Assembly (NCBI GenBank): GCA_001662655.1
Contig: KV460243.1
Source of the DNA: Pseudogymnoascus verrucosus
Taxonomy: Eukaryota
Strand: one strand, 5' to 3'
Length of the DNA: 64,000 nucleotides
Part shown: positions 51,458-59,652 of the stretch, piece after piece
Layout of the letters: every line of letters starts with the position of its first letter
How positions within the stretch are numbered: position 1 is the first letter of the stretch
The notes under the pieces: generated by a model
Seen by the model: the letters and a program-made list of their open reading frames with translations, nothing else
Database searches by the model: none
Told to the model about the DNA's origin: nothing
Translations under genes and position numbers: made by a program

Positions 51458-52575
51458 ATGGCAGACGCAGTAGCCACTCAACCCCACAACCTCCCCCTCC
51501 ACATCTCGCGCGAGAAATGTGCCGGCAAGACCTACATCGTGACAGGCGCCAACGTCGGCCTCGGTCTCGAAGCCTCTAAGCACCTCGTCGCCGTCGGCGC
51601 CGCCAAAGTCATCATGGCCGTCCGCAACCTCAGCGCCGGCGAGGCAGCCAAAGCCTCCATCGAAGCCGGTACCGGGACATCGGGAGTGGCCGAAGTATGG
51701 GCACTCGACCTGTCGAGTTACGATTCCGTCAAGGTGTTTGCGAAGCGCGCGGTGGCGGAGCTGGAGCGCATCGATGCGCTGATTGAGAATGCGGGTGTTG
51801 CTGCTTTCGATAGGACGATGGCGGAGGGGCATTTGCTGAATATCACTGTTAATGTGCTTAGTACGCTGCTACTTGCTGTGTTGCTGTTGCCGAAGATGAG
51901 TGATGACGCGAAGAAGTTTGGGATTGTGCCGCATATTGTCCTGGTGTCAAGCGGAGTCGGCTTTGACGCGAAGGCGGACTGGGATGTTATTAAGAGTGAC
52001 CCGTTGGTGGAGGTAGAGAATGAAGGGCACAAGGGACTGAAAATGTACGTAACCATGAGTCCCATACATTGGCCCTCTTTTCCCTGACTGTAACTAACGT
52101 CGATACTAGGTATCCCCTATCCAAACTTGTCGAGACAATAGCGACTCGCCAACTTGCGGCCCTGGCCCCCGTATCCCGCACAGGCGTTGTCATGAACATC
52201 GTTTGCCCCGGAAGCTGTAAGACAGAGCTTGGCCGCCATGCACCACCCGCCTTCCGCAAAATGCTCCAAGAATCGAAAGAAAAGTACGGACGCACTGCCG
52301 AGGACGGAAGCCGGACGCTGCTGTATGGGGCTGTTGCCGGAAAAGAGAGTCATGGGTGCTTTCTCGATTCCTGCCGCATCGCTGAGTAAGTCTCACACGC
52401 GTCCTTTGACCCGCCCGGTTTGCAAGTCCTATGCTAATATTGTTGTTTTGATAGTGATATTGTACCAATCTGGGTAACCGATGAAGAGGGGCAAAAGTCG
52501 CAGAAGCTCCTCTGGGATGCTGTTGCTGGCGAGCTGGAGTCCGTTCAACCTGGCTGCGTGAAGGCTATTCTGTAG
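51458..52575 (+). CDS. Short-chain dehydrogenase/reductase (retinol dehydrogenase-like)
   Basis: IVTGANVGLG, ENAG, YPLSK (YxxxK) and VCPGSCKTEL. Introns about 52045-52109 and 52385-52453. Confidence 0.92.
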
Positions 52576-52657: not shown

Positions 52658-54205
52658 CTAGAAGAACGTCGATTTGTACCAGAGCGCCTGGCCCGATTTT
52701 CCGTGAACATCACTAACCCATGGAAATGTGGCAAGAACCTTGCTTACACCTTCCCAAGAATCAATTCCCAAGGAGCGCGTCGTCTCTGCCATCTTCGGCA
52801 AAAACCACTCATCGTCCACTTCTTCGAATGCCGAAGCTCGTCCAGTGAACAGTATCCAAAGAATGACCTCTTTGTCCACCCGTCCACTGCCTATATGGCC
52901 TTGTGCCACCGATCGAGCCAAATTGGAGATCAGTGGTACATTAGAGACCTTCATAGCGAGACCCCGTAGTAATGCCATTAAAAATACAGCTAGGCCTATG
53001 TGCACCGCATTTTCGAGGCTACTGAATAGTCGCGACCCAGATAGGGGGCTGACCTGGAGTAGGCGGTAACCAAGTAATATGACGGTGTCGAGGAAGATGT
53101 AGGGTTTTATCCTTGGGCAGTATCCCGCACAGGCATCGTTCATTAATCTTGCAAGGCTATTCATATCCATGAAAATCGTTTCTAAGTCGTTTCTTAGATG
53201 TTTCGAGAGCCTTGGATCAATCATATTAATATCGTAATTCATTTCGGGGCCTGTGAATCGTCCAAATAAGGCCGTGCTATTAGGCACGATATCCTCGGTA
53301 CTAAACCTCGTTGCTGTGCCCTGGTGCATTGCATATTCGAGGTCGACTTTAAACATTTTCTGCGTCAAGCCAGGTCGATATCTCGAAAGCGCCGTGACAC
53401 CGCCCCGTAACTGGACCATCCGCTCCAGTCCACTGATGTGGACGAGCCCTTCTCGGTACTGACCACGGAGGCGCTCATGCTGCGCCAGGATCACTACGAC
53501 CGCTATGGTCTCATCTGATACTGCATCGTCTCTTGATAATCTTTCATTAATGAGGCGGAATGTTTGAGAGAGGTGACGCATGGCCTCCTTGGGGTCGTCT
53601 TTTTCAACCACGAGGCCATTGCGAGCTGTGACGGAGGCAGCAATGGCGCAGTGAAAGACTTAGATTTTAGTTAGCATGAGAGTGGTAGACTGAAACAAAA
53701 CAAGTACGACTCACAAGCTTCATCTAAAAACATGAACTGCACCCACATCGACGTAGGCACGTCCGTCATATCAACAGAAGTCTGTAAATCGTCAGGCTGA
53801 AACGGCCGGCTTACGAAAGAGAAAGCTAGACGACAAAGATTAACAACCAAGGCCCATCTACAAGTTCAGATACAAGTAATAACACATACCTCTCTGCACA
53901 ATCCCCCTTGCCTTAACACTCCCCTGCTCCGGAAACGAAAACACAGAAAGCCTATCCCCAATCATCCGCTCAATCGCACAACCGCCCTCTTCCTCCGCCT
54001 CCACATCCCGCGCATCCGCCACAACGCGCGGTACGCATATGATCGCTGATATAGGTCGCGATCCAGCTTCTCGCGCAGCTGCTTTAGTCCGCGATGGTCG
54101 AACGAGCGTCCGTCCTGCGTTCTTGCCTGTGGCCACGTGACTGCGGATTCGCCGCCTCGCAGCACGGTCGATGGGGGTATTGTTGTCGACGAACTGGAAG
54201 GGCAT
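52658..54205 (-). CDS. Fungal transcription-factor-like protein (Fungal_trans_2-type, no Zn cluster seen)
   Basis: MPFQFVDNN...RRRIRSHVATGKN N-terminus and INERLS...VHISGLERMVQLRGG. Two introns between about 53660 and 53890. Confidence 0.75.
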
Positions 54206-54764: not shown

Positions 54765-55991
54765 CTACGATGCTCGACTAATCCTCTCACTCTCTGCCCC
54801 ATTCGTCTCTCCACTCAACTCCACTGGCGGCCCTGGCGATTTCGGGCTGTGTAGCTCGGCAGGGCTGTGCGAAGAGTGTGGCAAAAACGTGTTGACCTTG
54901 TCACTCTGCGGCGAGAGGTAGTCTATTGACTCCGGACCACTCCAGTGCCGCCGAGCCTGGGGCTTTAAGAGCGAGGCATTACGGCGGCGTTGGATGAAAA
55001 ACAGAGCTACGGCGAGGAGACAGACGCCGACGATGCTGCCAATTGCAGCTCCTGCGATGGCGCCGGCGCTTAGTTTGTCGTTGCCTTTCACAGATGGGTC
55101 AGCGGAGCCTGAGGTCGGTTCTGTTGTCGAATCCGTGGAAGACGGATTAGATGATGCCCCTCCATCAGCCGTGAGGTTGGCATATGGCCCGCAGTCCGAG
55201 TTGGGCACCGCAAGCGGGCAAGAAGGGTCCTGGCACAAAGACAGGAGCTGCGGACCCTGTTGGGGATTAAACGTGACTGACAGGGCGCATCGGGAGTTAT
55301 ACATGCTGTTCATGCGGGTGTTTAGGGCCTGCGCATCGGCTGTCGAGAAGCCGTAGAACTCAGCTGCCCGTGTGAGCTGGTCGATAAAGTAGGCAACTTC
55401 GGCGAAATCGAGACTCATGAATTTATGAGCGTAGGCGAGATTCAGGGACCCTCCTGGAGTAGGAGGGTCAGCGGGTGGGAGAGAGCAGCCAAAGACGTGA
55501 GCGAAGGAGGTGTAGAAGTGGCCGAAAAGGCGGCTGGAAAGAGTTAGTTAAATATGCGTAGATGATAGTGGAGGAAGATGGGAGACGTACTATTCATTTG
55601 AAGAGCTGAAGAGACCAACGGATTGTGTTTTTCCAGACAAGTAGTTAGATAAGGGTGTCAGACCCCCATCATCGAGCCAATTTATCCCAACTGGTTGATT
55701 ATTCAGGTTCGTCGAAGCAAGTGAGCCGTTGAAAAATGGCAAGAGGTCCACACGTTGGCTGCCCTGAACACCTTGGTTGAGGATTCCCGTCAACTCCTTT
55801 GGCACATTCTTTGAAGGAATAGATTTTGGCCCAACAAACGCCAACGCGACGATGCTTTGCATTAGTTTCAGCTGATTTCCCTCCGAAGCCGTGCCATATT
55901 CAATCTGCGTATAGTAGTCGCAGATGGAGATAGTGCTCGGCCTCTGCGCAAGGATGGTAGCGAACAGGAGGAAATATAGCAACAACAAGAT
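54765..55991 (-). CDS. Predicted type-I membrane protein with an extracellular truncated-globin-like domain; start codon uncertain
   Basis: Signal-like LLLLYFLLFATILA-Q, intron 55534-55590, RLFGHFYTSFAHVFGC...AYAHKFMSLDFAEVAYFIDQL, Ser/Thr linker, TM AIAGAAIGSIVGVCLLAVALFFI followed by QRRR. No in-frame ATG before the signal peptide. Confidence 0.75.
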
Positions 55992-56237: not shown

Positions 56238-57095
56238 TTAATTCGACCCGTTCTTCGATTCAACAGCCCTCAAAAACCGCTCAATATCATCCATCTCCTC
56301 CGGCACCTTAACCCAATGCCCATTCAGTTCCGCTCCTTGATACTCCTTCCCCTCAACTTCCATTCCCAGCTGCTCCAACACCTTCCTCGCCTGTCGGCCG
56401 AGCTCAATATCGACCATCTCATCATCAATACCGTGCCCCAGGAACACCGGCGTATTCAACACCCCTCTAAACTCACGTGGGCTTGCAACGAGGTGTCTCA
56501 AATGCGACATCTTACTCTCCACAAAATCCCTCCCGGGACTGTCCTCCCCGCCCTTCCCCACATACTCCCCAATATGTCCAGCGAACGGTAACCACGTGCT
56601 AGCGCCCACGAACCCCCCCAACGTCTCCCTCTTCTCACCACAAAGCAACGTCCACATCCCCACTGCTGCACCCTGGCTAATCCCGCCCAACACCACTTTC
56701 CCCGCATCTCCACCTATCCGCACGATCTCATAGTCAAGCACAGAACTCAGATACCCCACCGCCTCGACGATCCCGGGCTCCTGCAGTTCCTGCCGGGAGG
56801 TGATGTCGCTGAGCGAGTGCGCCTCGAACCACGCCGGCATATCCTCTTCAAAGAGGGTGCTCCATAATTCCCGCGAGGAAGGGAAGACAAAGCGCCAGCT
56901 GGGAAGTTTTTCAGCTAGAGTTGGCTGGCCGGGGAGCTTGGACTCCTCCATGAGCTCTTCTGCGAATTCGGGACCGTTGCTGCCACGGCCATGGAGGAGG
57001 ATGGCGGTGTGTGTGTGTGGTGAGATGGGCTCGATGATGTGGAGTTCTGGGAAGGAATGGGGTGTGGTTGGTGGTTGATGAGTGTCTGGATCCAT
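56238..57095 (-). CDS. Phospholipase/carboxylesterase (acyl-protein thioesterase-like alpha/beta hydrolase)
   Basis: ILLHGRGSNG, LGGISQG, VFLGHGIDDEMV and GHW give a Ser-Asp-His triad. Intronless. Confidence 0.92.
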   Translation of the reverse strand: MDPDTHQPPTTPHSFPELHIIEPISPHTHTAILLHGRGSNGPEFAEELMEESKLPGQPTLAEKLPSWRFVFPSSRELWSTLFEEDMPAWFEAHSLSDITSRQELQEPGIVEAVGYLSSVLDYEIVRIGGDAGKVVLGGISQGAAVGMWTLLCGEKRETLGGFVGASTWLPFAGHIGEYVGKGGEDSPGRDFVESKMSHLRHLVASPREFRGVLNTPVFLGHGIDDEMVDIELGRQARKVLEQLGMEVEGKEYQGAELNGHWVKVPEEMDDIERFLRAVESKNGSN

Positions 57096-58430: not shown

Positions 58431-59652
58431 ATGTCGAATTTCTATAGCCTGTACCCGACCACAAGCGCCTCGGGGGTGGCAGCGACGCCGACGGAGATGG
58501 CGCCGCCGCCAACGCCGACGAGCCTGGCGACGAGGGGGAGGTCGAGTACGAGTACGAGCTCCGTTAGCTTCAGTAAGGGGAGTGCTAGTGGGAGCAAGAG
58601 GGACAGTAGGGATAGTAAGGCGAGTGTGGGGTGGTCGAGGAAAGATTGGATGGAGGCGCCGTTGCCGGTGGGGGTTACGATTGGGGGGAAAGGTATGTGG
58701 TGTTTTGTTTTATTTTGTTTGCTTCTATTCCGTTGGGTTTGCTTTCGTTCTTATACCCAGCACGCGATCAATTGGCCGAATTGACTTGTTCAATTCCCGT
58801 CTCCCCTACCTCAATTTCCACAGCCCGCGTCCAATTGATGCGATCCCATCCATTCGATTCCCCGCAAACACCCCCATCCCCGTTATAACACACCCACAAT
58901 ATCCACTCCAGCTCCCCATACCGAAATTGGAACCCTACACTGACAACCACCCCACAGAACGCGTCCCCCAAGCCGTCGCCCTCCTCGCCCCCGCCTTCGT
59001 AGATAACCCCCTTAACACCTACCTCCTTAACAGCCTCGACCCCGTGGATCGGCGCGCCTTCCTCCCCAAGTACTTCACCGCGCTCCTCACGCAAGCATCA
59101 CTAAACGGCGGGTACATATTCGAGCACTCAAACTGGGAGAGCTGCATGATTGTCCTCCCGCCCGGAAAGGGCGTCGGGAACCCGTTTACGCTTCTGCAAT
59201 CGGGGCTGGCGGGTCTGTTGAGGAAAGTTGGCTTGACGTGCGTTAAGCGGATGTTGGGGGAGTTTGAGGGCGCAGCTAAGAAGTCGAGGAAGGTGGGGTT
59301 GGCGAAGGGGGAGGTGCCTTATTATGTATTTTTCATTGGGACGAGGGCGGATCGTCAGGGACGGGGGTTGGGGACTGCGTTGATGGAGGAGGTGTGCGAG
59401 AGGGCGGGGAGGGAGGGGAGGAGTGTGTGGATAGAATCTACATCAGAGGGGAGTGCGAGGTTGTTTCGACGGTTGGGGTTTGTGGATGTAGAGGAGGTGG
59501 TGCTGGGGAAGGGGAAGGTGGGGGAGGCAGGGTATGGTCAGGTTGACGGGCCGGGGGTGAAGATGTGGACTATGGTTTGGAGGAAAAGGGAGTTTGAGGA
59601 GAGTGTGGATGAAGTGTTTAAACTGAATGAGTTGGGGATGGATAATGATTAG
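58431..59652 (+). CDS. GNAT-family N-acetyltransferase
   Basis: Intron 58693-58957; YYVFFIGTRADRQGRGLGTALM (acetyl-CoA motif A) and WIESTSEGSARLFRRLGF. Confidence 0.9.

Follow-up and report, generated by a model that had tools for sequence, protein, structure and literature searches.

An apparently undescribed fungal family of predicted extracellular truncated globins, with a Pseudogymnoascus copy that lacks its start codon

The two-exon gene at 55988-54765 on the minus strand of the window, the 64,000-nucleotide stretch of Pseudogymnoascus verrucosus contig KV460243.1 analyzed here, belongs to what is apparently a real and so far undescribed family of extracellular truncated globins, as judged from alignments and a structure model. 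We are nearly certain that the core of the predicted proteins is a 2/2 globin to which two insertions and six conserved cysteines have been added, that histidines occupy positions F8 and E10, and that the proteins are held at the cell surface by a transmembrane (TM) helix or a GPI-like signal. An earlier, sequence-only reading of this gene missed how far the family extends beyond a single fungal protein, as well as the absent start codon of the gene and the existence of an undamaged paralogue.

Exon 1 (55988-55591) encodes the signal peptide, helices A, B and C, and both insertions. Exon 2 (55533-54765) encodes helices E to H, a Cys-rich C-terminal part, the stalk, the TM helix and the tail, and ends with the stop codon. 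The single 57-nt intron between them (55590-55534) is of the GT...AG type, has a CTAAC-type branch site and would introduce an in-frame stop if left unspliced. Its position is identical in a paralogue in the same genome (G000:C23:190059-191380), and the spliced product is colinear with the public orthologue P0003 (Pseudogymnoascus, 388 aa), to which 374 of 388 residues (96%) are identical; both observations uphold the splicing proposed by the sequence-only reading. P0003 numbering is used for residues throughout. The proposed 5' end at 55991 did not survive the comparison, because the codon there is ATC and the orthologous start position is 55988-55986.

The order of parts in the earlier proposal (signal-like peptide, Cys-containing ectodomain, Ser/Thr stalk, one TM helix, tail) agrees with the hydropathy profile, which has a hydrophobic stretch at the N terminus and one TM segment. 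By hydropathy, residues 1 to 14 (55988-55947) resemble a signal peptide, and the conservation of A14/Q15/R16/P17 together with hydropathy places the predicted cleavage site before Q15-R16-P17. Helices B and C are separated by insertion 1 (approximately residues 54 to 81; 55829-55746), which carries a GIL motif and a beta-hairpin, its probable limits being taken from DSSP of the model and from conservation. Insertion 2, between position CD1 and helix E (residues 88 to 130 or so; 55727-55599, limits likewise approximate), contains a hairpin, an N[WF]LDxG motif and an extra helix. The six conserved cysteines are Cys149 and those at 55922, 55289, 55235, 55220 and 55193; that Cys23 and Cys149 pair in a disulfide is our guess. 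The Ser/Thr-rich stalk (about residues 255 to 287; 55169-55071) was recognized by its composition and low pLDDT, and is followed by the single TM helix (about residues 294 to 314; 55052-54990; hydropathy 2.4), modeled as a helix at residues 300 to 319. A Gly-spaced GAIAG motif precedes and overlaps this helix. The cytosolic tail (54989-54768), delimited from sequence and model, begins with a basic stop-transfer stretch and continues into a disordered Ser/Pro-rich region; both stalk and tail are disordered in the AlphaFold model of P0003.

That model was built with our alignment A3 and contains no haem. Its mean pLDDT is 79, with block means of 88 to 98 over residues 21 to 250. A structure search against 48,161 chains returned group I truncated haemoglobins (trHbs) in the top five places (Z 9.9 to 11.1, rmsd 2.1 to 2.5 Å, 116 to 118 aligned residues), the best being 1IDR (Z 11.1, 2.3 Å, 118 of 127 residues). 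Next came groups II and III and the algal THBs (Z 7.9 to 9.3), then 3/3 globins (Z at most 6.8), and the first clearly unrelated match stood at rank 46 (Z 5.2). A second, shorter family member from metagenomic data gave a Z of 12.8 at 1.8 Å over 116 aligned residues. The structure tool cautions that Z values below about 13 may arise by chance for helical proteins; a chance match is unlikely here because the ranking is graded, the target chains are covered in full and the sequences lend support. DSSP of the model finds the features expected of a 2/2 globin, namely, the BE and GH helix pairs, a short helix A, no helix D and a long EF loop. The group I fold suggested by the sequence-only reading is thus borne out by the model of a 96%-identical orthologue. 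The Foldseek comparison that it called for came out divided: the top 7 rows were all group I trHbs, but no match reached an E value of 0.001 or lower (best, 0.26 and 0.095 for two queries). The additional ~110 residues of the domain are accounted for by the two insertions and the Cys-rich C-terminal part. Modeling of a homodimer with haem returned a score of 0.00, left the alignment unused and gave no contacts; it is evidence neither way.

With the window exons as queries, neither Pfam nor the PDB yielded a globin match by sequence, PF01152 retrieved 0 candidates from the source genome, and neither the window exons nor P0003 matched at the PF01152 cut-off of 21 bits. PF01152 matched 20 of the 40 relatives in one set, 5 of the 11 in another, and 1 of 27 closer homologues (E 0.16). 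The cut-off was passed by 3 of the 11 and 2 of the 40, all of them repeat proteins whose domain scores add, and the best single-domain family protein scored 20.1 bits. phmmer and profile searches of the PDB reached group I trHbs at E values of 0.004 to 0.08.

His169 (55427-55425) aligns with the proximal histidine of the Tetrahymena trHb, position F8, and is invariant (119/119). In the GlnE11Val and GlnE11Ala structures, the mutated residue lines up with the one that directly follows the first histidine of the family. Hence, His138 (55520-55518) is E10, a candidate distal ligand, and Leu135, Phe139, Ser142 and Phe143 are E7, E11, E14 and E15; the assignment of Phe62 to E15 in the accessible text of PMC7082302 agrees. 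The register of helix G, checked on Leu90 = G12 in the same text (PMC7082302), makes Val179 G5 and Phe182 G8, the latter conserved in 118 of 119 sequences. Position 138 is His in 108/119 members, comprising 50 of 50 with a GPI-like end and 41 of 48 of the TM class, where it is replaced in the other 7; Asn or Gln stands there in 9/119. Both histidines are kept in all 41 sequences of a second alignment, made up of unnamed metagenomic proteins. The motif, the two His codons and the F8 and E10 assignments of the sequence-only reading are upheld, including the spacing of ten residues between His138 and Gly148, the Gly of its FGC motif. Phe86 (55733-55731), which probably occupies CD1, is Phe in 99 of the 99 rows that have a residue. 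As a separate observation, a third histidine on helix G (A3 column 181; window 55391-55389) is present in 25/119 members, the paralogue among them, and is Tyr in the window copy.

Other marks of group I are altered. The GG motifs, one between helices A and B and one closing helix E, and AspB16 are canonical in this group according to the part of PMC4720485 available. In the family alignment the AB motif is absent, and helix E ends in Gly148-Cys149 (Cys149 codon, 55487-55485) rather than GG, with Gly in 97/118 and Cys in 118/118 sequences. AspB16 has been lost from the fungal members (Asp at column 54 in 3/92). The PheB9-TyrB10 pair is absent as well, Tyr occurring anywhere in columns 44 to 52 in only 6 of 93 sequences. 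Anchored on AspB16 of the metagenomic members, B9 would be Val47 and B10 Ala48, the latter replaced by Asn in 53/98, from the other classes. G5 is Leu or Val, versus Phe in the Tetrahymena protein. Since several canonical marks failed, we file the family as a divergent 2/2 globin subfamily and not as canonical TrHbN. The resulting distal pocket is apolar, with Leu at E7, Phe or Leu at E11, Phe at E15 and G8, no TyrB10 and no GlnE11. An aromatic residue is found at E11 or E14 in 106/119 members and at both in 0/119, as might be expected of a cavity whose size is conserved; the swap follows one clade and so may be a single event.

The family is large and taxonomically broad. Word-based searches recovered 27, 46 and 190 relatives, and a profile search recovered at least 288 representatives (50% identity clusters) at an E value of 1e−30 or lower and 732 at 1e−10, counts that are rough because the profile included the stalk and TM helix and many matches were exon fragments. 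The family spans ascomycetes, a basidiomycete and a diatom, with named members in Pseudogymnoascus, Xylaria, Colletotrichum, Aureobasidium, Parastagonospora, Beauveria, Aspergillus, lichen fungi, Flagelloscypha (a basidiomycete) and Nitzschia inconspicua (a diatom). A scan of prokaryote genomes with six exact 8-residue patterns gave 33 pattern matches, none of which was confirmed; the sensitivity of such patterns is low, and absence from prokaryotes is not proven by it. The ESM Atlas gave no usable match for P0003, and the clusters that it returned for P0281 all bore automatic names, peroxidase or hypothetical, and shared no Pfam domain.

Alignment A3 is a selection of 119 matches spanning either the domain or the half of it encoded by exon 2; near-duplicates, most N-terminal fragments, and most proteins that are tandem or very long were left aside. 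Sorted by a rule based on hydropathy, 48 of the 119 have a TM helix and a tail, 50 a GPI-like C terminus and 21 neither. In the FastTree phylogeny the TM class comes out as a clade, 26 of its 27 full domains being placed in the same group of 30 with a support of 1.0. It has its own pocket residues, with Phe or Trp at E11, Ala or Ser at E14 and Ala or Ser at the presumed B10, and its tails contain a median of 5 S/T-P sites, are poorly conserved and carry no known domain. Tandem forms have 2 to 5 domains. P0057, a Nitzschia protein named "bacterial-like globin," has four, P0061 three and P0058 two. P0093 (1,221 aa, ENA) appears by eye to have five near-identical repeats in which E10 is not His but Lys, the residue of Chlamydomonas THB1, with a much shorter second insertion and a GPI-like end. 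P0052 is a fusion of a family member with a But2 C-terminal domain (PF09792, E 2e−20).

What could such a globin do outside the cell? We take the family to derive from group I truncated haemoglobins and its members to be exported, the class of the window gene being anchored by stalk and TM helix and the sister class by a GPI-like signal, as their hydropathy indicates. We consider it probable that haem b is bound through His F8 and loaded in the secretory pathway; whether His E10 then acts as a reversible sixth ligand we regard as an even question. Coordination of the iron by E10 may yield a hexacoordinate complex and so ease electron transfer, and hydrophobic residues at B10, E7 and E11 go with low O2 affinity (PMC11904497, in the text available). 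The apolar distal pocket would accordingly stabilize bound O2 poorly, and the protein would have a cytochrome-b-like role, serving one-electron redox reactions and as a site for NO, nitrite or peroxide at the outer cell surface, with release of His E10 as the gate. We guess at an extracellular, hexacoordinate redox role because the pocket has neither TyrB10 nor GlnE11. The whole chain is our best guess, held with somewhat less than even confidence. Evidence against it, and against simple bis-His ligation in particular, comes from the TM class, in which no more than 41 of 48 members have His at E10, and from the model, which resembles ligand-bound conformers more closely than hexacoordinate ones. 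The apo model is closer to cyanomet THB1 (6CII, Z 9.8) than to the THB1 structure 4XDI (Z 8.3), which we take to be the hexacoordinate form, a ranking to be read with the caution that AlphaFold may favour the form more commonly solved. In the ligand-bound THB11 structure, E10 is directed away from the haem (PMC7082302, accessible text). No reductase partner for the globin was identified.

An unlikely reading, yet the best placed of the alternatives, is that the proteins capture ferric haem outside the cell and hand it inward along a relay of secreted, GPI-anchored and TM forms, with the tailed TM form as the receptor. Forms without an anchor, GPI-like forms (50/119) and TM forms (48/119) indeed coexist in the family, tandem arrays of 2 to 5 domains are typical of binding proteins, and the GPI-anchored CFEM haemophores offer a fungal precedent (PMC4183699, in the part available). 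The source genome fits such a relay badly, since its two family copies are both of the TM class and no GPI-class copy is found among the scored candidates. Moreover, globins bury their haem, the insertions may even cover the distal side, and there is no iron-uptake gene among the neighbours scanned.

The separate clade formed by the TM class, with its own pocket residues, bears on another explanation, a single-pass gas or redox sensor in which O2, NO or the redox state would act as a switch on His E10 and helix E, with the shift relayed through the Gly-rich TM helix to a phosphorylatable tail. The Gly-spaced motif, present in 36 of 48 TM-class members, and the S/T-P sites of the tails suit it. 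We nevertheless think it improbable: between the domain and the membrane lies a long stalk that is disordered, the tails show little conservation and no known domain, and the GPI-like and secreted members could not signal in this way. Similarly improbable in our judgment is a five-coordinate globin that uses His F8 only, with His E10 turned outward and paired with a propionate or the insertions, acting as a weak surface buffer of O2 or NO. The model does lie nearest to pentacoordinate or ligand-bound trHbs, and Asn or Gln replaces His E10 in some members (9/119). A basic residue at E10 is a general support for haem, and care is urged over His or Lys there (PMC4720485, as far as available). But E10 is His, rather than Lys or Arg, in 50/50 GPI-like and 41/41 metagenomic members. 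Ferrous haem outside the cell also requires a reductant. Finally, a haem-less adhesion or ligand-binding protein that retains the globin fold, with histidines that are structural or bind another metal, would suit the lost trHb marks (both GG motifs, PheB9-TyrB10 and, in fungal members, AspB16) and a stalked surface architecture common in adhesins, but is very unlikely given the invariant F8 His, the CD1 Phe and the apolar pocket positions conserved across fungi and a diatom.

The boldest reading would have the proteins constitute an undescribed class of extracellular, disulfide-stabilized bis-His trHbs shared by filamentous fungi and diatoms, one fungal clade of which became a single-pass surface receptor or haem-uptake protein. 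Fungi would then possess, beyond the plasma membrane, a haem-based sensor of O2, NO or redox state or a haemophore system, independent of CFEM proteins and flavohaemoglobin. We regard this as doubtful, if conceivable.

The copy in the window is itself probably a weak or null allele, because TTG replaces ATG at its start position (55988-55986) and the next AUG belongs to a different frame. There is no N-terminal ATG in its reading frame, and ATG is present at 55988-55986 in 3 of 3 related sequencing runs (X2, X4 and X6, from three studies), as is Met in the six public homologues checked (P0003 to P0006, P0201 and P0202). Run X1 agrees with the window, with TTG at a depth of 189, but may be the source of the window DNA and so is not independent support. 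The first AUG downstream of the lost start (55897-55868) lies in a favourable context, with A at −3 and G at +4, and opens a 9-codon ORF in another frame. The first in-frame ATG (Met43; 55862-55860), where the public model P0203 (346 aa) begins, has C at −3, and a product from it would be without the signal peptide, helix A and Cys23. Five in-frame near-cognate codons lie around the old start position; since UUG and AUC can initiate in Neurospora and filamentous fungi (PMC5487733, in the text available), leaky expression of some full-length protein is possible. Upstream ATGs were rejected as starts because every upstream ATG frame stops early and the orthologues begin at 55988. An alternative 5' intron near 56140-56090 was also set aside because of the orthologous start.

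Comparison with P0003 found 9 residue changes specific to the window gene, 3 specific to P0003 and 2 unpolarized, and of the 16 listed coding differences common to the three runs (17 more rows of the comparison lie beyond this list), 10 are non-synonymous and 6 synonymous. The mild excess of private changes and this tally hint at relaxed selection on the window allele. The paralogue (L003/L004), 56 to 64% identical to the window gene, is intact: it has its ATG and both histidines and belongs to the TM class. With the window copy probably decaying, the value of the finding lies in the family.

The neighbours give no functional hint. A phospholipase/carboxylesterase gene (56238-57092, minus strand; PF02230, E 2e−27) ends 250 bases upstream of the globin start, and the public model P0030 (608 aa), which carries both PF02230 and the globin part, is probably a gene-calling fusion. 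The multi-exon gene just downstream (52658-54205, minus strand) has by eye the look of a fungal transcription factor, and the two frames of it that were scanned had no Pfam match at an E value of 0.001 or lower. A short-chain dehydrogenase (51458-52084) and a GNAT acetyltransferase (58831-59649), both on the plus strand, are ordinary neighbours.

The family adds a third globin type, placed outside the cell, to the flavohaemoglobins and sensor globins of ascomycetes and basidiomycetes. If haem is bound, it is a testable candidate for extracellular handling of NO or reactive oxygen species (ROS), electron transfer or haem capture in moulds. The sequence-only reading knew of no characterized fungal surface protein of this kind, and our literature search, which covered chiefly the main texts of freely available articles, likewise turned up no account of a secreted or anchored 2/2 globin from Dikarya; InterPro or AlphaFold DB annotations may already flag the fold. 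In the accessible part of a 2012 census (PMC3287990), Ascomycota and Basidiomycota have only flavohaemoglobins (F) and sensor (S) globins. Globins of type T1, the same superfamily as ours, were then seen in two early-diverging fungi only, Allomyces and Batrachochytrium, as a 116-residue single domain and as a domain in a 1,129-residue LRR protein (PMC3287990). A 2020 review, in the text available, mentions T1/T2 globins in stramenopiles and opisthokonts in general terms, as well as multi-unit T globins (PMC7475203); hence, the diatom members may have been counted before.

Members now carry the names "hypothetical" or "heme haloperoxidase," and our result corrects a label propagated through databases. 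The PCP motif, which defines heme-thiolate peroxidases (PMC8293615, in the part available), occurs in 0 of 8 proteins labelled as heme haloperoxidase or chloroperoxidase, is absent from P0003 and is found somewhere in the sequence in 4 of 119 members. No peroxidase Pfam domain was found at an E value of 0.5 or lower in 40 proteins that included the 8 labelled ones. The family and the heme-thiolate peroxidases (UPO/chloroperoxidase) are both secreted fungal proteins and have only the automatic name in common, the fold here being that of a globin. The CFEM haemophores of the Rbt5 type are likewise Cys-rich, extracellular, fungal and GPI-anchored, but have a different fold of their own; the CFEM Pfam domain has no match in the window exons and is absent from the 25 families listed, of 26 in all, for 27 members.

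Two other globins are likewise tethered to membranes. Acanthamoeba AccaN is a trHbN with a predicted C-terminal TM segment, a likeness drawn from its description, and the available text makes no mention of a signal peptide (PMC4081604). Vertebrate globin X is an acylated, hexacoordinate, lipid-anchored 3/3 globin (PMC7475203). For such membrane-associated globins, protection from ROS or sensing has been proposed (PMC4081604, PMC7475203, in the parts available). The hexacoordinate TrHbN-1 proteins, cyanobacterial GlbN with its distal His and Chlamydomonas THB1, THB2 and THB4 with Lys E10, share with the family a potential E10 ligand, here His; they are small proteins with polar pockets, unlike the apolar pocket of the family. 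The distal His of GlbN is at E10 (PMC11904497, PMC4720485), and GlbN structures were absent from the fold-search lists. The nearest relatives are the group I TrHbN proteins HbN (1IDR) and those of Tetrahymena (3AQ5), Paramecium (1UVY) and Shewanella (7TT9), whose 2/2 fold is matched over the whole target chain (116 to 118 aligned residues) and with which the family shares His F8, Leu E7, Phe E15, the probable Phe CD1 and an F-G-H region alignable by sequence. In contrast to them, it has a domain of ~230 residues with two insertions and six conserved cysteines, a signal peptide and a membrane anchor, no PheB9-TyrB10 or Gln E11, altered GG motifs, and single domains that score below the Pfam cut-off.
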